A stretch of 64,000 nucleotides of DNA from Candidatus Eiseniibacteriota bacterium (GTDB lineage: Bacteria; Eisenbacteria; RBG-16-71-46): contig JBGAOA010000006.1 of assembly GCA_044222065.1 (NCBI GenBank), forward strand, positions 1 to 64,000, in the 5' to 3' direction. The notes under the pieces were generated by a model. It saw only the letters and a list, made by a program, of their open reading frames with translations, searched no databases and was not told the origin of the DNA. Position numbers and translations under genes: made by a program. Below, piece after piece: positions 23,909 to 35,319 of this stretch (position 1 is the first letter of the stretch; each line of letters begins with the position of its first letter).

Positions 23909-24862
23909 CTACGCCGCGCGCTTCGCGGCGCCGGACTCGCCGCCGCCGAAGCCCGAGAGCAGGCTGTCCATTCCGATCTGCACGCGCTCGAGGATCTCGG
24001 TCATGCGGTCCCGGTCGTTGAGGCCGAGGTCGAGGAACACGTGCTCGGTCGTGAAGTTCACTTCGCCGCCGTCCCCGCCCACGCCGAGGTGCTGGCAGAT
24101 GCGGTTCGCGGCGTAGACGAGCCGCGTCGCCGGCGGCACCGCGTGGCCGGCGCGGTACAGGTGGTGCTGGCCCGCCGCCGTGACGATCGGCTCGGGCATT
24201 CCCCACTGCTTCAGCACGTGCGCGCCGACCTGCTCGTGCATTTGCGTCACGACGATCTCGGCGGTCTCGTCATCGAGCGGCCGGCCCTGATTCTCGCGCG
24301 CGTAGTCGGCGATCGCGTTGAGCAGTGTCGGCACGCCGGTGTCGTGCAGGAGGCCGAGCAGGAACGCGGCTTCGTGACCGCTGCCGGTCGCGAGCGCGAG
24401 CGTGTCGCACGCGACCGCCGCGCCGACCGAGAGCTTCCACGAACGCTCGAGCGCCGCCTTGTGAGACTTGGCGGTGAACACCTTGGTCTGGATGGACTCG
24501 GTGAACACGAGGTTGCTCACGGTCTTCATGCCGAGCCGTGCGAGCGCCTGCTGCACCGTGTCCACGGGCACGGTCCCCGCGTACGCCGCCGAGTTCGCGA
24601 TGCTCAGGATGCGCGCGGCGAGTGCGGGATCGGTGAGCACCACCTTCGTGATCTCGTCCATGCCCGCGTCGGGCGATTCGGAGAGCTGCATCACCCGCAT
24701 CGCGACCTGCGGCAGCTTCGGGATGACGAGCTTGCCGGCCTCGAGCTTCTTGAGGATCGAGGCCTGCAGGGCGTCGACGAGCTTGTCGTCGAGCCCGAAG
24801 GAGGAGCCGTCGACGTTGTAGACCGTGTTGGTGGGCGGGCGATGAAGCTTCTTCGGAAGCAC
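23909..24862 (-). CDS. HDOD domain protein
   Basis: IPKLPQVA..DPALAARILSIANSAAY..ALARLG..LLGLLHDTG..HEQVGA..WGMP..HH; own GTG start inferred near 24862. Confidence 0.88.
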   Translation of the reverse strand: MLPKKLHRPPTNTVYNVDGSSFGLDDKLVDALQASILKKLEAGKLVIPKLPQVAMRVMQLSESPDAGMDEITKVVLTDPALAARILSIANSAAYAGTVPVDTVQQALARLGMKTVSNLVFTESIQTKVFTAKSHKAALERSWKLSVGAAVACDTLALATGSGHEAAFLLGLLHDTGVPTLLNAIADYARENQGRPLDDETAEIVVTQMHEQVGAHVLKQWGMPEPIVTAAGQHHLYRAGHAVPPATRLVYAANRICQHLGVGGDGGEVNFTTEHVFLDLGLNDRDRMTEILERVQIGMDSLLSGFGGGESGAAKRAA

Positions 24863-24981
24863 GAGTCGTCGTCCCTGAGCGGAGGTTCGTACGCGCGGCC
24901 ACGGCGGGGCCGCCGGCGGCCACACGGGGTACCCGCAGTCTCGGCGGCCGGCGCCCGGGCTTGAGGGGCGCCGGCGGGGCG

Positions 24982-27900
24982 TCAGTCGCCCGTCGCGGTG
25001 AAGGCCGCCCAGTAGAACGGGTGGAGCGTGAGCCCGCGCGCGCGGCGCGCCGCGATCACGGCACGGCACGCGTCGCGCATCGCACCCCCCGCGGTCGGAT
25101 CCGGGCTCGCGTAGAACGCGACCATCCACTGGCGCGTCGTCTCGTCCGCGATCGGCCACAGGCTCGCGACCACGCAGCGCGCTCCGGCGAGGTGGAACGC
25201 GCGCCGCATGCCGGACACGGCGGCGCGGCTCCAGCGCTCGGCGACCCCCGACTGGCACGCCGACAGCACGACGCGTTCGGTGCCCTCGAGGTCGAGCGTC
25301 GAGACCTCGTCGGCCGTGAGCCAGCCGTCGTCGCCGTCGTCCGTGTCGGCGCTCGCGCGATTGGCGCCCGCGAACGCGAGCCACGCCTCGCGCCCGATCC
25401 ACGGCGAGGCCGGCGGCGCGGGTGAGGGCGGAGTCGCGGGGCGCTTCGCCTTCGCGCGCTTCGTTTGCCCCGACGTCGCGGCCAACTCGCTCACGCCGCC
25501 GACGCCGCGCGCGGCGACGAGCGGCAGGCATCGGCGCCCGCCTCCTGCGAGAGCACGCCGTGCGTCGCGACGTGGATCGCGCGCCGGCCGTGCGCGAGCG
25601 CGCGGAAGCGCGCCTCGGTCGCCTCGGCGCCGAGCAGCAGTTCCGGCGTCGCCGCCGTGCGCGCCCGGCCAGAGCGCCGCGATCGCCTTCGCTTCCTCGC
25701 GCGCGCCCGGCAGGTCCGCGAGCGCGAGCGTTCCGTGCCCGCGGCCGCCGCCGGGAAGGCGCGCCGCGCCTGCGGTCGCGCGCGGCCTTCGGCGGCCGGG
25801 CCCGAGAAGTCGGGGTCGCCGACCGCGAGCAGCGTCCGCGATTCCCGACGGGTGCGCCGCGCGACCTGTGGCCGCGCCTGACGAGCACGCGGATCTGCCG
25901 ATCGGATTCGGCGAAGGCCACGCCCTTCGAAGAAGGAGCGCGAGCCACGGCAGGTCGCGCGTCAGGCTGACGCGACGACGAACACCTCGCGGACTCGCCG
26001 AGGGCCGCGGCGAGCGGATCCCACAGGTTCGCCTCGCCCGCGGCGCGCGCCGCGCGCTCCGGCCGCGCGCGCGCCGGCCGCGTTCGCCGGCAGGCGGCGT
26101 CGAGAGCCGGGAGAGCCATGCCGAGATGCGCGCCGTGATCGCGTCCAGCGGAACCGAGACGCACGAGGCGCGGGTCCGCGCCGCCGGCGCGCGCAACGAA
26201 GGCGAGCAGCTCGAAGTGCTCCTCGCCGCCGGCCGCGGCCACGTGGTCGTCGAGCGCCTCGCCCGGCTGGAGCGCGGCGAGCACCGGCGCGAGCGGCAGA
26301 GGGCCGACGCGTTCGCCGCGCGCCGCGGCGAGGCGCGCATAGTCGCGCTCGGCGTCGTCCGCGAGCGCCCGGCTCTCTTCGAACCGCATCCGCGCGCCGG
26401 GCGAGCCGTCGTCGAACGTGCCGGCGACGAGCCGCTGCGCGTGACGGCGCGCCGCGCCGACCCATCGCGCATGCGCGGCGGCGAGCGCCGAGTCGCCCGC
26501 GACCGACACGCGGCGCCGCGCCTCGATCGCCTCGCGCATGGCCCCGTGGCGCTGCAGCACGGCCTCCCACGCCGCCCGCACCTGGTCCGGCCGCGCCGGT
26601 TCGGCGAGCAGCGCGAGCGACTGCGAGGGATCCGCGGCGTCGTCTTCGTGCATCAGCGCCTCGCGGTCCGACAGCCCCTCGATCTCGAAGCGGAAGCGCT
26701 CGCGCGCCATGCCCTCGGCGATCGTCGCGTGGCGCCACGCGTCCGCGGCGCGACCCAGCCGGTGCTCCGCCTGGGCGCGCGTCTCGACGGCTTTCGGCCA
26801 GTTCTTGCTGCGTTCGAGACCCGTCGTGTCGGCCCACGCGTCCAGGGCGCGGCCGAGGCTGTCGGCGAACGCCGCGTCTGCCGGACCGCGCACGGTCTCG
26901 AAGAGCTGCACGGCGAGATCGAGGCGCGTCATGAGCGCCACGTCCGGCGCGCGCGCGGCGGCGAGCAGCCGCGTGCGCGCCTCGGCGTAGCGCCCCTCGT
27001 CGAGCTCGAGACCGACGCGCACGATCGTGCCGTAGGCGGCGATCGTCGGATCGGGATCGGGGGTGCGGGCGAGGATCTCATCCGCTTCGTCGAGCAGCGT
27101 GCGCGCCCGCGCCGCATCGCCGCCGCGTTCGCACGCGAGCGCGAGCGTGATGCGCTTGTGCACGAGCGACACGTGGGTGGGCGGCAGGCGCCGGGTCTCC
27201 ATGGCGAGCACGGAGTCGAGGTCCGCCCGGGCCCGCGCGAAGTCGCCGAGCGCGATGCGTGCCGCGCCGAGCGTCGAGCGGTACGAGATCGCATCGGGCG
27301 AGGCCTCGCCTTCGCGTTCGACGCACGTCGAGAGCGCACGCTCGCCGAGCTCGACCGCGCGCGCCGGGTTGCCCGCGCGCCGCTCGAGCGTCGCGAGCGC
27401 ATCGAGCGCCAGCTCGAGTCCGTGGAACGACGAGCGGGCGTTCGCTCCCGCGATGCGGACGGCGTTCTCGAGCTCGGCGCGCGCGCTGTCGAATTCGGCG
27501 AGTTCGCCGTACGAGCGTCCGAGTTCCGTGCTCAGCACGCCGAGCCCCGGCGCGTTCGGCCCGAGCGCGCGCTCGATGAGCAGGGCCGAGCGGCGGAACG
27601 CCGGGATCGAAGCCGCGTAGTCCGAGCGCGCGCGCTGCGCCTGCCCCTCGCGGAAGTAGAGGTTGCGCAGCACCGAGTCGCTCGGCGGCGCCTCGGCCAG
27701 CGCGATCGCGATCGCGCGTCGTACCTGCTCGAGCGCGCGATCGCCGTCCTGCAGGTCCACGCGCAGCAGCGACGCGGTCGAGAGCGCGCGAATGAGGGTG
27801 CGCGTGTCGGGCGGGCGCAGCCGTTCGGCGACCGCGATCGCGCGATCGGATGCCGCGAGCACGACGCCGTCCGAGAAGTCGCCGAGCGAACGCCCGTCGA

Positions 27901-28138
27901 GCGTGAGCCGCGTGAGCGCGCGCGCCAGCTCGACGGAATCCACGGGCGTCTCGCGCTCGATCGCCTCGACGAGCGCGCGACACGCGCGCACGGCGTCGGT
28001 CCAGCGGCCCGACGACTCGAAATGGGCGAGCGAGTCCCACGGCGCGGGCGACGCCGGCGGCGCCGCGGCGCCGAGGGCGACGACCGGGACCGCGAGAGCG
28101 AGCGCGGCGGCGAGTGCCGCGATGGATCGGAGCGTCAC
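24982..28138 (-). CDS. Secreted TPR + CHAT (caspase-like) protease, frameshifted in this sequence
   Basis: Signal peptide and TPR helices from 28138; CHAT motifs LWDPL, LLAVGDPDF, LPGAREEA, IHVATHG (from 25577), VLSACQSG, HPFYWAAF spread over all three frames between about 25500 and 26200. Confidence 0.8.
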
Positions 28139-28330: not shown

Positions 28331-30679
28331 CTACTCGCGCTTCACGATCGCGACGACGGCGCGCTCGGCGCCGAGTTCGGCGCGGCACAGGTAGAGGCCG
28401 GCGCGAACGGGCGCGCCCTCGTCGTCGCGACCGTCCCAGGCGAGCGATCGCACGCCGGCCTCGACCGGTCCGCGATGGATCGTGCGCACGCGGCGGCCGG
28501 CGAGATCGAACACCTCGACGCGTGCGACGCCCGCCTGCGGCGCGAGCAGCGCGATGCGGATCGCGCCCGCGAACGGATTGGGTTCGGCGCGCAGCGCGAG
28601 CGTGCGCGGCGCGCTCGACGGCGGCACGCCCACGGTCGGCAGTGCGACCACGTAGGCGTAGTTCGCGGGGAACGGCAGCGCGTTCACTCCGGCCGGCGGC
28701 GGGCCTCCCGACGACTGCGTCGCTTCGCCGGCAGGCGCGCTCGGCGGGGAGTCCGGCTCGGGTCCGATGGGAATCACGCCGTACCACACCTGGCTCGAAT
28801 CGCCGGGCGCCGCGCCGGGCGGCACCGGAACGTGTGCCGTGACCTTCACGTGCTGTCCCGCGGCGAGCGCGAGCGGCGCGCCCGAGTACGAGACACCCCA
28901 GCCGCGCGTGTCGAACGCCTGCGGCTGCAGGGTGACCGAAGCCGCGCCGTCGTTCGCGACGTCGAACGTGAGATCGGCGATCTGTCCCAGCTCGGCGCCG
29001 GCGTCTCCGTCCCACAGCACGAGCGGCCGCGGCACGCGATTCGCGGACTCGAAGCAGTCGCTCGCCCCGTGGGAGCCCGGACGATTCGACGCGAGGAAGA
29101 CGCGCTCGAGCCCGATGTCCGCGCTCGGTCCCGTGTCGTCGAGCGGGCCGTTGAGCGCACTCACGTTCACCGGCGATCCCCACGAGGCCTTCACCACGTC
29201 GCCGCCCTTCGCGGGCAGCGCGCCGCTCACGTTCTGCGACCAGACGTCGTAGCCGCCGAGCCCGCCTGGGCGATTCGACGCGTAGAGGAGCTGCGCGGGC
29301 TCGCCGTCGAGCGCCTTCGACACGCAGGGATCGCGCTCGTCGAACGGCGTGTTCACCGACGCGCCGAGGTTGACGCTCGCGCCCGGGTCATCCGTCGAGT
29401 CGATGGGCGCGACGTAGAGATCGAACCCTCCGCTGCCACCGGGCCGATTCGAGGCGAACAGCAGGTAGCCCAGGAACGCGTGCGGGCTCGTTTCGTCGGC
29501 GGACGTGTTCACGTTCGGCAGCGAGGTCACCGAATCGAACGTGAGTGGCGCGCTGTGGCCCGCGCGGTACAGATCGAAGCCGCCGGAGCCGCCGGGCCGA
29601 TTCGACGCGAAGTACAGCTCGGCATCCCCGATCCCTGAATTCGGCGCCAGTTCGTTGAAGGCGGAGTTCACGAGCGGCCCGCAGTTCACCGGACTCTTCC
29701 AGCGCGACTCGTCCGAACTCCACGTGACGTACCAGATGTCGTAGCCGCCGAAGCCACCTGCGCGGTTCGAGGCGAAGTAGAGCCGCCCCGCGCGCGAGCC
29801 GAACTCGGCGCCATCGGCGACGTCGGGGTCGCGATCGTCGGCCGCGCTCATCGCGGAGTCGCACAGCGACGACGGCGCTTCGAACACCGGCGGCGGATCG
29901 AAGATCGCGTCGAAGTGGCCGTCGTCGTGCTCGAAGCTGAACCAGTGCGACAGCTCGTGCTTCAGGATCATGTAGTAGTCCACGGTGCCGATCGGGCACT
30001 TCGCGTCGGCGTTCGTGATGAAGCCGTCGCCGTCGGTGTCGCTCGGGTAGCACCAGGTGCGGCCGCCGCCCGGCTCGTCCTTGATCCACAGGATCGCGGA
30101 CAGCGTGTCGTAGCGCGCCTTGAACTCGACCTTCGCGCCGACGTCGTTCACGCCCTTCTCGAGGTCGAACGACATCAGGCCGAGCGTGTTCGCGGGCACA
30201 CCGGGAATGAACCCGGACGGTTCGATCGCGACGTCGGCCGCGCCCTCGTCGTCGGTGAACCACGAGTCGTCCGTGATCGGGTCCTTCACGGGTTGACCCG
30301 GCGCGTGGAACGGCGAGGAATCGCCGTAGGCCTTGTCCATCGCCTTCTTCTCACCGGCCGACATCGAACGGCTCGACCTCGCGTGATCCTTCGCGTCGGA
30401 GAGATCGTGTCGCGGTCCCGCGGACGACACATGATCGTTCGTCTCGTTGCGGTTGCCCGTGCCGTTCGCGGCCGGGGCCTGGTCGTACATCACCCACTGC
30501 TTGAGCGCATAGCGCAGGCAGCGCTCCTGGTCGGCGCTCAGGTGGCCCTTGTAGATCTTGAACGGCTTCTTCGGCAGGTGCGCCTTCGCCATCTTCTGGG
30601 CGTGGGCGAGCGGCGCGAGCGCGGCGAGCAGCGTGGCGGCGAACAGCGCGTGACGAAGCATGCGAGCGGCGAATCGCAT
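28331..30679 (-). CDS. Secreted protein: metzincin-like zinc motif + PD40/TolB-like repeats + FlgD-Ig C-terminal domain
   Basis: Signal peptide; HELSHWFSFEH (29927-29959); five LYFASNRPGGxGGxD-type repeats; PNPF..FDLAGRRVR..WDGRDDEG..AGLY. Confidence 0.85.
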   Translation of the reverse strand: MRFAARMLRHALFAATLLAALAPLAHAQKMAKAHLPKKPFKIYKGHLSADQERCLRYALKQWVMYDQAPAANGTGNRNETNDHVSSAGPRHDLSDAKDHARSSRSMSAGEKKAMDKAYGDSSPFHAPGQPVKDPITDDSWFTDDEGAADVAIEPSGFIPGVPANTLGLMSFDLEKGVNDVGAKVEFKARYDTLSAILWIKDEPGGGRTWCYPSDTDGDGFITNADAKCPIGTVDYYMILKHELSHWFSFEHDDGHFDAIFDPPPVFEAPSSLCDSAMSAADDRDPDVADGAEFGSRAGRLYFASNRAGGFGGYDIWYVTWSSDESRWKSPVNCGPLVNSAFNELAPNSGIGDAELYFASNRPGGSGGFDLYRAGHSAPLTFDSVTSLPNVNTSADETSPHAFLGYLLFASNRPGGSGGFDLYVAPIDSTDDPGASVNLGASVNTPFDERDPCVSKALDGEPAQLLYASNRPGGLGGYDVWSQNVSGALPAKGGDVVKASWGSPVNVSALNGPLDDTGPSADIGLERVFLASNRPGSHGASDCFESANRVPRPLVLWDGDAGAELGQIADLTFDVANDGAASVTLQPQAFDTRGWGVSYSGAPLALAAGQHVKVTAHVPVPPGAAPGDSSQVWYGVIPIGPEPDSPPSAPAGEATQSSGGPPPAGVNALPFPANYAYVVALPTVGVPPSSAPRTLALRAEPNPFAGAIRIALLAPQAGVARVEVFDLAGRRVRTIHRGPVEAGVRSLAWDGRDDEGAPVRAGLYLCRAELGAERAVVAIVKRE

Positions 30680-30860: not shown

Positions 30861-31835
30861 CTACGCCGCGCGGACGATGCCCGCCGCTTCGAGCGCTTCG
30901 ATCGCCGCGCGCATCGGCTCGACGAGCCGGCGCACCGCCTCCGCGTCGCCGAGGCTTCCCGGGCGTTCGAGCGTGAGGTCGGCCGTGCCGTCGCCATTGT
31001 CCACGAGCGACCACGACCAGCGCGGTGTGGAGGCGTGGAGCTGGAGCAGCGCGTCCGCGACGCCGGCGGTGGCGAACATCGCGCGCGCCGCGGCGGGATC
31101 GCTCGTGCGCAGCACGAGCGCGCGGTCGAGCGCCTCGTGCCCGATCGTGACGGGAGGCGTGGCCGCGAATTCGAGTGCGGCCGCGGCCGCGCGCGCGCGC
31201 GGATCGTCGGCGCGCTCGCGCAGCGCGTTCACGCCGGCGCGCATCGCGTGCGTCGCGAGGCTGCTCACGAGCGCGGGCTCGCGCCCCGAGCCGTGCGCCG
31301 AGAAGGCGAAGCCGCCGCGCATCGCGACGCGCGCGCGTGCGCGCGTGATCGGCGAGCGGTGGTTCGACCACGAGCGCACGTCCACCGAACCGCGAGCGAC
31401 GGGAACGCGGAGTGCCGGCCCGTTCGGCATGCCGTACGTCGGATCGAGCTTCGAGTGGCCGACGACGGTGCCGCCAAGCGTCGTGGCGAGCGCGCTCGCC
31501 TGCGCGCGGTCGCCCGGCCGGCTGACGGGAGAGAGGACCGAGAGCAGCGCGCACGGCAGGAGCGGGACCGCCACGACCCAGCGCACCCACCCGTGCGCGA
31601 GGATCGCGTCCGCGATGGCGCGTCCGCCGACGTAGTCGAGCACGTGCGGATGGAACCAGACGAGGAGGGCCGCCCAGGTGATCACGCGGAACACGTCGAA
31701 CAGGACGTAGATGAGCTTCTCGATGCGCTCGTTCTCTTCGGGCGTGCAATTGAGCGCGTGGAAGCGCGAGAGGTGCGGATAGCGCCTCGGTGCGCCGGGC
31801 GTGCCGGGGGCGGGGTCCTGGGCGGGCAGCGACAT
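30861..31835 (-). CDS. Hypothetical membrane protein
   Basis: Two N-terminal hydrophobic segments and protein-like composition; start uncertain (31835 or 31880). Confidence 0.6.
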   Translation of the reverse strand: MSLPAQDPAPGTPGAPRRYPHLSRFHALNCTPEENERIEKLIYVLFDVFRVITWAALLVWFHPHVLDYVGGRAIADAILAHGWVRWVVAVPLLPCALLSVLSPVSRPGDRAQASALATTLGGTVVGHSKLDPTYGMPNGPALRVPVARGSVDVRSWSNHRSPITRARARVAMRGGFAFSAHGSGREPALVSSLATHAMRAGVNALRERADDPRARAAAAALEFAATPPVTIGHEALDRALVLRTSDPAAARAMFATAGVADALLQLHASTPRWSWSLVDNGDGTADLTLERPGSLGDAEAVRRLVEPMRAAIEALEAAGIVRAA

Positions 31836-31952: not shown

Positions 31953-34427
31953 CTATCGGAGCCCGTACCGCCGCATCTTGGCGAGCAGCGTCGTGCGCGG
32001 CATGCGGAGCGCGCGGGCGGCTTCGGCGCGCGAGCCGCGATGGGTCGCGAGCGCCTCTTCGATGCGGCGCTTCTCGACGCCGAGCATCTCGGTGCCGAAG
32101 TCCGAGGCGTCGTCGTCGCTGCCGCTCAGCGACAGATGCTCGATCCACTCGCCCTCGGCGACGAGCGCCGCCTGCTCGACGACGGCCTTCAGCTCGCGAA
32201 CGTTGCCGGGCCATCGATAGCGCTCGATCTGCCCGAGCGCGGCGCTCGTGAACTCGAGCCGGCGCCGCTCGCGCTCGCACGCGCGCGCGAGGAATTGCTG
32301 CGCGAGCAGCACGACGTCGTCGCCGCGTTCGCGAAGCGGCGGCAGCGTGACGACCCCGTGCGCGAGCCGGTAGAACAGGTCTTCGCGGAACGGGCCGCCG
32401 CCCTGGAGTTCGTCGCGCGTGCGGTTCGTCGCCGCGACGATGCGCGCGTCCACGTGCAGCAGCTTGACCGAACCGACGCGCCGCGACTCGCCCGACTCGA
32501 GGAAGCGCAGCAGCTTCGTCTGCAGATCGATCGGCATCTCGCCGATTTCGTCGAGGAACACCGTGCCACCGTCGCACACTTCGACGAGGCCGGGCTTGTC
32601 GCGCGTGGCGCCCGTGAACGAACCCGACACGTGGCCGAACAGCTCGCTCTCGATCATCTCGCGCGACATCGCGCCGCAGTTGATGGGGAAGTAAGCGCCG
32701 CTTCGGCCCGAGAGACGGTGAATGCCGGCGGCGACGAGTTCCTTGCCCGTGCCCGACTCACCGAGCACGAGGATCGGCGAGCGGGAGCGCGCGAGTTTCT
32801 CCACGGTGCCGAGCAGCTCCAGCATGCCGGGGCGACGCGTGAGCAGCCCGAAGGTCTCGTACGCCCAGCGCGTGCGCGCTTCGATCTCCGCGGTGGAGCG
32901 CCGCGCCACGGGGCGGCGGACTGGCGCGTCGGTCGTCACGAACGACGCCGGCACGCTCGACGGCGGCGTGCCGCCGGAGTGCGCGACGTTGAGTTCGGCG
33001 AAGCGCGCTTGTGTCTCCGCGAGCTTCGCCTTCGCGCCCATGCGTTCGAACAGGTCGCGAGCGAGGAGGTACGCCTCGAGCGCGCCGCGCGTGTCGGCGA
33101 ATGCGCCGGCGTGCGGGCCGCGCAGCCAGTCACCGTAGGCCATCCAGAGCTTGCCCCACTCGTACGGCGTCTCGATGTCTTCGTAGAAAGCGAAGCCTTG
33201 CTCGAAGTGCTGCTTCGCTTCACCCGGGCGGCCCACGGCGGCCGCCGCGAGCGCGAGGACGCGATAGGTCGCGGCCTCCTCGTAGCGATCGCCGAGCTCG
33301 CGGCAGTGCGTGAGGCCGAGCTTGGCCTCGGCGTACGCCTCGTCGTGACGTGCGAGGAGGTAGAAGCACTCGGCGCGGCGCCGACGAAGCTCGGCGACGA
33401 TGTCGCCCTTCGGCACGAGCGCCATCGCCTTCGGGAACACCGCGTCGTAGTGCTTCAGCGCGGCTTCAGCTTGCCCCTGCTCGAGGTGCACGTCACCGAG
33501 GAACTCGGAGGTGAGGAGGGCAGGGCGGGAGAGGGGAGAACGATCTTCAAGAGCCGCTGTTTCTCTAAGGCTTATGCTGGCGCTCGAGAAGTCGCCCCGG
33601 TGTATGTCGATCAGTGCGGTCGCCTGATGAGCGTATCGAACGAAGCGATCATCTGCGTATGCCAGCGCCTGCTGAAGCGCCTTCCGCGCCAGGTTGCTCG
33701 CTTCGTCGAGACGCCCTCGCCTCCAGCTAAGCAGCGCGAGGCTCTGATCCACTCGCAAGAGCTGTACTCGATTCTGTAGTTGCTCCCACATGACTGCGGA
33801 AGTTCGGAGTTCTTCCTTCGCTTCGCCCCAGTGACACAACTGCTTGCTGATGAGCGCTAGGTTCCGGCGAACGTCAGCCTCAAGTCGAGCTTCCTGAGCA
33901 CGTCTCCCGGACACCAGTGCCTCCAGATACCAGTTCTTGGCGGACTTCAATTCTCCCAATGTCCAGGCGATGTTGCCGAGTACAAGTGCAGCACGACCCA
34001 GTTCCCCAGTGTCAGGCAATTGAAGCAGTCGAGCGTGGGCACGCTGCGCATCGCACAAGGCAAGCGACACCTCTCCAGCTTTCCATCGAGCTGCCGCTCG
34101 CCAGACGAGAGGTAGTGCGCTTTGCGCTGACGCCGATTCGAGAGCTACTCCTTCGAGAAGCTCGTCTGCGAGTCGACACGCTTCCTCAGTCCGATTGAGG
34201 AAGACCAGTACTTCCAAGCGCAGCAGCTGGAGACGTGCTCGCCCGTTCGCGTTCGGCGAGTGAGAAGCGGCGCAAAGTAACTCAACGGCCTCTTCAAACT
34301 CGCCGCTGCCGCACAACCTCATTGCCACATCGCTCGCCCGATCGAGCACGCTAGCGTCTTCCGTTTGACCTGCTGACTCCGCAAGCAGGGAACGAAGAGC
34401 AGCCGCTTCGATCAAAAACGTGCTCAT
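31953..34427 (-). CDS. TPR-containing sigma54-dependent transcriptional activator (bEBP) with Fis-type HTH
   Basis: [70 protein letters not shown]; about 500 aa of TPR-like helices N-terminally. Confidence 0.93.
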
Positions 34428-34726
34428 CGCGCACTTCTCCGCTCAGACGACACCATCGATCTCGACTGCGGGATCACGACTAGCCGGCCCGGAGCGACTT
34501 CGATTCGGACTGAGCCCAGATTGAACGCAAGCGGCCTTGCCGTGCGCTGCGCCCGAGTGTTGGGCTCATCGGGCTCCCCAAACGACCACGGCGCGACGAG
34601 CTTCTTCGGCTTCTCTCCTGGATACAGAATGCTGTCCTCGCCCGCGGATGCGATCGTGGGGAGGACCAACCCGGCGGCCAGCATGAGAGCTGCGATCATC
34701 GCGGCCCATCGATGCGTGCGCTTCAT
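34424..34726 (-). CDS. Small secreted protein / putative signalling-peptide precursor (100 aa)
   Basis: GAGGAG RBS, ATG at 34726, signal peptide MKRTHRWAAMIAALMLAAGLVLPTIASA; stop overlaps the bEBP start (ATGA). Confidence 0.75.
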   Translation of the reverse strand: MKRTHRWAAMIAALMLAAGLVLPTIASAGEDSILYPGEKPKKLVAPWSFGEPDEPNTRAQRTARPLAFNLGSVRIEVAPGRLVVIPQSRSMVSSERRSAR

Positions 34727-35319
34727 CACTCGACTCCTCGGAGCTCTCGCTCCACCCGGTGCACTCCGTCGCCCGTCCTGAGCGGAGCGCGCTTCCAAGC
34801 AAAGAAACTCCGCCGGGGCACCGGGAGCAACGCCCTGACAGAGCTTCGCCGCGTGATTCTCGGGTCGTGATGAGGGGATCGCATCAGCCACCAGACCTGA
34901 GTCAAAGGTCAACGGGACGCGTCGAGGCTATTCGCCCGATCGCGAGCGGGTCAACGACATTTTGGTGCGTGCATCGCGACGCGCACTCGAACTCGGAAAA
35001 CAATTCCTAGCGCCCGCAGCGCCACGAATCGCGTGTTCGCCGCGCCAATCGGGGACGTCGCGAGCTGCCCTCGCCGCGAGACGTTGTGGCATTCGAGGCT
35101 GCCAGCCTGCCAGTCCCCGCGCAGCGATTTCAGGGTCCCGAACGCCACTGAGGCCGTTTTCGCACGACTCCCAAAGGCTCACGCGACTTCGAGCCCCCCC
35201 GGCACAGCCCGTGCAGTCCTCGCTCCTCGCACCGTCCGGACCCGTGCGCGTTTGGCGCCCGCGAACCCGGCGACTCGACCTGGACCCGACTGGCCCGCGC
35301 GGCCGATGGAGCCTTCGCG

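Follow-up and report, generated by a model that had tools for sequence, protein, structure and literature searches.

The locus considered here raises the question of whether a short secreted protein and the transcription activator encoded directly behind it act as a matched signal and receptor. It occupies positions 31953-34726, on the minus strand, of a 64,000-nucleotide stretch of contig JBGAOA010000006.1 from a Candidatus Eiseniibacteriota bacterium; that whole stretch is called the window below. An initial annotation, made from the letters alone, had proposed that a secreted 100-aa peptide precursor is translationally coupled to a sigma-54 activator with a tetratricopeptide repeat (TPR) input, in the manner of the RRNPP quorum-sensing systems. 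The two open reading frames (ORFs), the ribosome-binding site, the predicted signal peptide and the ATGA overlap between the genes were confirmed from sequence and hydropathy. Judged from sequence comparisons across the phylum, the small protein and the activator are likely to form matched signal-and-receptor pairs. The features of the pair are as follows.

34424-34726, minus strand: 100-aa small protein, a propeptide candidate (ORF call)
34643-34726, minus strand: predicted Sec signal peptide, residues 1-28, outside the variable block (sequence and hydropathy)
34568-34579, minus strand: G-E-P-D motif, residues 50-53 (motif tally over 53 peptides)
34427-34567, minus strand: peptide tail, residues 54-100, with a polar linker, a moderately hydrophobic segment and a basic end; allele-specific
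31953-34427, minus strand: 824-aa TPR/AAA+/helix-turn-helix (HTH) sigma-54 enhancer-binding protein (ORF call, Pfam, AlphaFold)
32979-33557, minus strand: conserved C-terminal TPR half, residues ~291-483 (pairwise identity)
32127-32840, minus strand: AAA+ domain, Walker A at 556-562 and GSFTGA loop at 602-607 (Pfam)
31965-32078, minus strand: Fis-type HTH, recognition helix R-T-[TS]-[LFM] constant across alleles (Pfam, alignment)

A small protein gene paired with an activator gene

The peptide gene has GAGGAG 7 nt 5' of its ATG. Its product starts with a basic n-region (MKRTHR), followed by an h-region with a Kyte-Doolittle 19-residue score (KD19) of 2.2 and by A-S-A at residues 26-28, with no Cys; the Sec signal was judged by inspection and hydropathy, and the same layout of n-region, h-region and A-x-A is found in the peptides of homologues, which range from about 83 to 124 aa. 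The sequence WSFGEPDEPN, previously singled out as the core of the mature peptide, is conserved only as G-[DE]-P-D: in an alignment of 33 peptides G50 and P52 are invariant, and D53 is present in at least 90%. Over 53 peptides the motif reads GDPD in 34, GEPD in 8, GDPT in 8, and GDPN, GDPS and GDPV in 1 each, and the tail that follows is 36-77 aa long (median 53). Asp-Pro self-cleavage between GD and PD was ruled out as a general mechanism because 8/53 peptides, the window's included, carry GEPD. No NCBIfam or Pfam family covers the peptides searched; the window peptide gave only a sub-threshold DUF4148 match in Pfam.

Peptide stop and activator start share ATGA, an overlap hidden in the public gene call because that call, only 512 aa long (P0165), begins within the activator ORF. 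In residues ~146-481 of the activator all Pfam matches are to TPR families (TPR_12, E 3e-12), followed by Sigma54_activat at 530-690 (PF00158, E 1e-55), an AAA lid at 699-767 and HTH_8 at 784-821 (PF02954). The expected TPR input of about 500 aa with no receiver (REC), GAF or PAS domain was borne out both by Pfam, which matched none of the three in the activator, and by an AlphaFold model of residues 1-495, in which 24 helices span residues 2-483 (predicted local distance difference test, pLDDT, 92.9). There is no membrane helix in the activator (best KD19 1.04), and NCBIfam matches were confined to the AAA+/HTH part, all below cut-offs. Walker A reads GESGTGK, and the GSFTGA loop is a variant expected to retain activity according to excerpts of PMC4641369. 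The two TPR halves evolve differently: mean pairwise identity is 0.52-0.70 over residues 321-480 vs 0.22-0.41 over residues 1-280, and the conserved half contains the invariant residues R350, Y382, R389 and P421-W424. Elsewhere in the family one lineage (L026-L029, L113, L117 and L120) has the loop variant GS[YF]TGS, and others have GAFTNA or GGFTGA.

The host has sigma-54, encoded by rpoN on contig C96, and is a diderm, as had been supposed, judging from its five-POTRA protein and LpxC. Its genome contains three TPR-input activators, namely the window's and paralogues on contigs C64 and C7, the C7 paralogue having an extra domain that is GAF-like by inspection. All three (3/3) are preceded by a signal-peptide ORF with G[DE]PD. 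Conversely, when 75 signal-like small ORFs of the genome were scored for [GS][DE]P[DTSVNE], the motif was present in 3, exactly those before the TPR activators. The AAA+ domain of the C64 paralogue is split across frames in the assembly (G000:C64:49341-50035), which may reflect either an error of assembly or a pseudogene.

The pairing extends through the phylum. The conserved TPR half was matched, paralogues included, in 175/201 phylum genomes at E<=1e-8, a tally that takes in one unpublished genome (G015), and three sets of loci, related by kinship rather than independent and possibly overlapping, were scored for an upstream peptide gene. Set 1 held 72 loci (best matches plus chosen paralogues, including the window), 11 of which had no upstream DNA; a G[DE]P peptide was found at 56 of the 61 scorable loci, a variant or frameshifted signal ORF at 2 and none at 3, the automatic peptide call having been corrected by eye at three loci. 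From ten genomes of ten other families came the 41 loci of set 2, reduced to 38 by removing 2 without upstream DNA and 1 of other architecture; a signal-type ORF lay upstream at 37/38 (34 automatic, 3 by eye), with cores that include GDPD, GIPD, GVPD and GDTD and usually with a C-terminal amphipathic helix. Set 3 comprised 64 metagenome loci, of which 54 were processed and 45 had enough upstream DNA (three pairs are duplicates); the peptide was present at 42/45, with a variant motif, a frameshift and no peptide at 1 each. Homologous activators thus keep the upstream secreted ORF that the initial annotation had predicted for them. Several cassettes per genome are common in set 2 genomes, named relatives are mostly Candidatus Eisenbacteria, and flanking genes vary between loci. 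In two scans of genome collections, both dominated by generic AAA+ matches, the sole full-length match (Ca. Cloacimonadota, L200) has another N-terminal architecture and is without such a peptide. A metagenome search with the variable half gave no match, and the best score in the ESM Atlas, 0.81, was under the lead threshold.

Translational coupling, as first proposed, is typical of the window clade, in which 35/36 pairs have no more than 25 nt between peptide stop and activator start; it is not typical of the paralogues, where gaps of 6-108 nt separate the genes in most cases. Tight spacing would also suit a switch internal to the cell. On this account the small protein would act within the cell that makes it, as an anti-activator or membrane tether bound to the TPR region either before export or through an amphipathic basic tail at the inner membrane; the activator could then read out translation shut-off (phage infection, for example), stress on export or cleavage of its small partner, and diversification would be driven by conflict with mimics, not by communication. 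Anti-activators of bacterial enhancer-binding proteins (bEBPs) include NifL, PspA and HrpV. In the literature searched, FleN/FleQ is a further case. The overlap or short gap in the 35/36 clade pairs suggests fixed stoichiometry, a C-terminal amphipathic helix ends the peptides of other clades, and no dedicated import or processing genes were found at the loci inspected, nor AgrB or SbmA/BacA in the host genome. On the other hand, the peptide gene is missing beside intact activators such as that of L008, which means that it does not encode an obligatory inhibitor, and the motif unit is repeated inside the precursor at L277, L278, L279, L302 and L313, which suits a released ligand better. PADLOC models match the shared AAA+ domain only, and no relative was found in viral contigs. 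An internal switch is an unlikely reading of the pair, and a released signal is preferred.

Some loci depart from the usual gene order. At L125:1235-2114 tandem peptide genes precede one activator, the first being followed by a short activator-start remnant. Activators without a peptide gene are found at L008, L018, L130 and L362; at L008 and L130 the leader runs directly into the activator, and L018 has a short remnant only.

A shared hypervariable block

The peptide tail and the front of the activator are inherited together as one allelic block.

33560-34574, minus strand: hypervariable block of ~1.0 kb, covering activator residues 1 to ~290 and everything in the peptide from the motif on (GC content at third codon positions, GC3; alignments; contig breaks)

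On its left the block begins at 34574, the third position of the motif's E codon. Within the activator, GC3 is 0.60 over codons 1-300, in the bottom 1% of 1542 long ORFs, vs 0.89 afterwards; the drop recurs in 33/36 orthologues and in only 3/13 set 1 paralogues. Synonymous sites of the N-half are near-saturated among close relatives (proportion of synonymous differences, pS, mostly 0.71-0.84), and those of the rest of the activator are not. When the block was compared by blastn with 88 family genomes, only five pieces of 33-43 nt were matched, with E>3e-4; matches to these genomes start at ~33531.

The edges can be seen directly in pairs of closely related loci. In metagenome contigs L358 and L360, identity is 99-100% up to the motif, 48-68% within the block and 99-100% once more after residue ~290; bar one earlier mismatch, their differences run from the third base of the D/E codon to just before the conserved TPR half. 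Two copies in genome G097 share 98-100% over leader and signal, 43-68% over the block and 83-100% beyond it, the divergence beginning about five codons 5' of the motif. Other families show the layout as well. Three copies in G144 have a common peptide up to the motif and different sequences after it. Among G082 copies, identity rises from 30-68% before residue 300 to 97-100% after it. The G082 copies stand in tandem arrays (C1:2838515-2849806 and 4165312-4171872; L286, L289, L293 and L296) with near-identical AAA+/HTH halves; the array peptides share LG[IL]PDQ, and their N-halves differ.

A second allele, with the same left edge, coexists in the population of the window species itself. In DNA run X11 a contig equals the window exactly over 34575-34831 and then continues for 190 nt unlike it. 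In run X10 a contig starts at 34575 with a depth of 9.4 vs 3.5-3.9 within the block, depth being a rough measure, and the contigs of both runs break at 33494. The alleles therefore differ in input and share output: the block varies among them, and their HTH recognition helix does not.

Across 22 close pairs, which are not independent of one another, similarity of the N-half tracks that of the peptide tail (rho 0.64) and does not track that of the 16-residue segment preceding the motif (rho -0.27). The core first proposed for the mature peptide includes WSF, on the pre-motif side; the part that sets specificity would instead lie at or after the motif, because the pre-motif side falls outside the block. 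From these sequence comparisons the shared block likely defines matched signalling groups.

Two other explanations bear on the same pattern. Polymorphic toxin-immunity cassettes have a constant leader and motif, a variable C-terminus, a coupled variable partner, low GC3 and tandem arrays. The present cassette has that layout, with a constant export leader and motif, a variable C-terminus and partner, low GC3 and the arrays of G082, and the tails in the first set of relatives are mostly net positive. A cationic amphipathic tail freed at the motif might then be a bacteriocin-like toxin, and the variable TPR half an immunity element or sensor mounted on an activator that sets off a response. However, every copy pairs the peptide with a complete transcription activator instead of with a small immunity protein; in other families the tails are often acidic and Gly/Pro-rich; and no toxin or bacteriocin family in Pfam or NCBIfam matched the peptides searched. 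Antagonism of this kind appears improbable.

The second is that the two proteins do not interact at all, the small one being a co-transcribed periplasmic or sorted protein, such as an exosortase substrate, and the shared variability mere hitchhiking. An exosortase is indeed present in the host genome, and some tails consist of a hydrophobic segment and a basic end. Yet the host genome has no orphan motif peptides; a KD19 of 1.6, sufficient for a membrane helix, is reached by only 8/53 tails, the window's being at 1.08; and hitchhiking does not predict a block whose two edges recur in lineages independent of one another. We give this explanation very little credence, and a matched signal and receptor remains the preferred account of the block.

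Predicted promoter, leader and candidate targets

Upstream of the peptide gene, three further features were recognized.

34925-34954, minus strand: predicted sigma-70-type promoter, with -35 TTGACC at 34954-34949, an 18-nt spacer and -10 TAGCCT at 34930-34925
34727-34918, minus strand: structured 5' leader of ~190 nt (conserved blocks in an alignment of 26 leaders; predicted fold)
34739-34734, minus strand: ribosome-binding site GAGGAG (sequence)

In 34/36 orthologous loci a TTG-N16-19-TAnnnT site is present 197-286 nt (mostly 220-244) 5' of the peptide start, a count made without a shuffle control; a stricter promoter scan gave no call at 34925-34954. The leader contains a C-rich box, a GC-rich hairpin with a U-rich run behind it, and a second hairpin that covers the ribosome-binding site; it had no match in Rfam. 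In RNA libraries, perfect-match contigs from 4/4 runs of four studies cover only 34610-34907, which spans the leader and the 5' part of the peptide gene. Such contigs can show neither starts nor levels, and the absence of activator cover carries no weight; they are a weak hint of transcription from the predicted promoter. An upstream ORF, 38-57 codons long, has its stop on the start codon of the peptide in 18/35 orthologous leaders (34727-34900 in the window), and the frames and sequences of these ORFs vary among orthologues.

Direct autoregulation through a sigma-54 promoter in the leader was considered and rejected: a TGG(C/T)TCGG box is present without the fixed GG-N10-GC spacing across leaders. 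A strict sigma-54 scan of the host genome gave 3 sites, none assignable to the window activator. Activators of the C64 type (G000:C64:50543-51000; L144, L146 and L150) have a downstream sigma-54 box and then a non-coding stretch of ~430 nt with conserved segments. One of these segments is the reverse complement of the -35 region of the cassette promoter (TTCGTTGACC), and the 5' end of the segment complements the leader of its own cassette over 13 nt in L144 (0/100 shuffles); the same complementarity in L146 and L150 is 9-10 nt and not significant. Pairing of the window leader with the sigma-54 RNAs behind C64 and C7 was not supported in a crude test: the longest perfect complements, of 8-9 nt, were matched by 43 and 74/100 shuffles.

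On the same strand downstream of the pair are a gene for a membrane-associated protein without a Pfam match (28331-30676) and one for a secreted protein whose matches, to metallopeptidase, PD40 and FlgD-Ig families, are weak (30861-31835); neither is found beside orthologous loci for which flanks were tabulated. Positions 23909-28138 of the window encode a long secreted TPR protein with a C-terminal part, CHAT-like by inspection, that shifts frame several times in the assembly and runs into an HDOD-like gene.

A signalling model and its relation to known systems

On balance, the pair is probably an allele-specific system of peptide and cytoplasmic receptor, with the logic of RRNPP systems, a diderm host and a sigma-54 output. 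The small protein would be exported by Sec as a propeptide, and the signal and pre-motif segment would be removed by processing. The released peptide would re-enter the cytoplasm through an Opp/Dpp-type transporter and, with the stretch that starts at G[DE]PD, would bind to the TPR superhelix of the adjoining gene's activator, switching AAA+ activity and hence sigma-54 output, as activation or as inhibition. The ligand may be extended, with the constant acidic motif lying on the constant C-terminal TPRs and the variable residues on the variable N-terminal TPRs. Because LGN holds a 29-residue peptide in its groove, as described in excerpts of PMC6525239, a long ligand spanning both halves is plausible. 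Four family-5 solute-binding proteins are encoded in the host genome and show only that transporters of this type are present. Alleles would be exchanged by homologous recombination in the conserved flanks.

The gene pairing, the bounded block, the covariation of tail and N-half, the repeats and duplications, and rpoN with the four solute-binding proteins speak for this proposal, and so does the fold of the TPR model, which resembles superhelices that bind peptides: LGN with peptide (Z 26.1, root-mean-square deviation 6.0, 316 aligned), Rap with peptide (Z 25.6, root-mean-square deviation 4.0, 339 aligned), MalT (Z 25.4), NprR (Z 24.2) and AimR (Z 21.8). Several observations weigh against it. 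The top fold matches are effectively tied among unrelated proteins and so are uninformative on descent, and a TPR fold by itself reveals no function. To get to a neighbouring cell, a signal has two membranes to cross. At the loci inspected the cassette has no protease or importer of its own beside it, and AgrB (PF04647) and SbmA/BacA were not found in the 94%-complete host genome. A sigma-54 box lies within 600 nt downstream in only 1/32 orthologues (vs 5/13 paralogues), and direct positive feedback is not evident, since the promoter is of the sigma-70 type. Receptors without a peptide gene show no clear losses, keeping 0.94, 0.89 and 0.79 of the conserved positions, vs a median of 0.97 and a minimum of 0.68; the L008 activator retains 94-96%. 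Finally, the covariation of tail and N-half is also expected from linkage, as the two are physically adjacent; it comes from dependent pairs, and the ten residues directly after the motif contribute little signal to it (partial r 0.06-0.12 in the 22 pairs).

A broader proposal is that the phylum shares a peptide language, in which exported G[DE]PD peptides would re-enter cells and drive sigma-54 through TPR receptors, dialects would arise by exchange of the 1-kb block between fixed flanks, and some genomes would keep arrays of dialects wired to one output. We hold this more tentatively, as a serious possibility that falls somewhat short of probable. Most genomes sampled from the phylum have the cassette, frequently as several copies, and gene callers conceal it by clipping the low-GC3 front off the activator. 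L358/L360 and the G082 arrays, with their identical flanks, are natural cognate/non-cognate controls. Should specificity prove modular, which the block suggests, many orthogonal peptide-controlled switches could be drawn from the family.

In the literature searched (titles and the starts of abstracts) there was no description of the system, nor of peptide signalling through a TPR receptor in diderms or with a sigma-54 output; there such signalling was described for Bacillota only. The RRNPP(A) signature, in excerpts of PMC10075063, is a propeptide of 10-100 aa with a Sec signal and a receptor of 250-500 aa with 5-9 TPRs, encoded by adjacent genes; in those of PMC9765709 the receptors have an N-terminal HTH or three-helix bundle before the TPRs. 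Compared with Rap-Phr, NprR-NprX, PlcR-PapR and AimR-AimP, the 100-aa size of the window propeptide, its Sec signal (by inspection), the TPRs and the gene adjacency all fit, and the TPR superhelix fold is alike. Repeats within precursors, duplicated peptide genes and peptide-less receptors, reported for RRNPP in PMC9765709 and PMC11343458, are shared as well, and the presence of several cassettes in one genome is a further RRNPP-like trait. In contrast, many homologous propeptides exceed the 100-aa limit, the receptor has 824 aa and about 12 helix pairs, the domain order is opposite (TPR N-terminal, AAA+/HTH C-terminal), a tail of ~50 aa follows the conserved motif, and output and host, sigma-54 and a diderm, differ. 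The RRNPP-like pair first proposed therefore stands as to pairing, co-variation and fold and fails as to receptor size and domain order; judged by these last two, the window pair is not an RRNPP member. Common descent with RRNPP is not supported by the modelled fold either, which ties with LGN and MalT.

LGN/Pins and domain III of MalT gave the best sequence and fold matches to the TPR region, and LGN binds long extended peptides; however, the one is a eukaryotic scaffold and the other a STAND sensor, neither has a secreted partner encoded alongside, and only the fold is in common. An EPE motif and antiparallel binding in LGN ligands, like a low GC content of comQXP, found no confirmation in the papers searched. 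The peptides differ from PEP-CTERM/exosortase substrates in having a tail of 36-77 aa and a motif without a directly following transmembrane helix and basic cluster, and 7 peptides searched gave no NCBIfam CTERM match. Like the bEBPs NtrC, NifA, PspF, RtcR and LuxO, the activator has an AAA+ domain with a GAFTGA-type loop and a Fis-type HTH, in a genome with rpoN; unlike them, it has a TPR region of ~480 aa as input.

In the agr locus of staphylococci, the peptide and the N-terminal part of its receptor are polymorphic together. The same is described for the pherotypes of ComQXP, peptide and receptor N-terminal domain both being polymorphic, in excerpts of PMC4008528 and PMC4408185. The receptors of those systems are membrane histidine kinases, whereas the window receptor has neither a kinase domain nor a membrane helix, and their loci need a modifying enzyme (ComQ, AgrB), of which there is none at the loci with flanks inspected. 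What the window system has in common with them is its organization: peptide and receptor N-terminus are co-polymorphic, the output is conserved, alleles coexist in a population, and the genes overlap.

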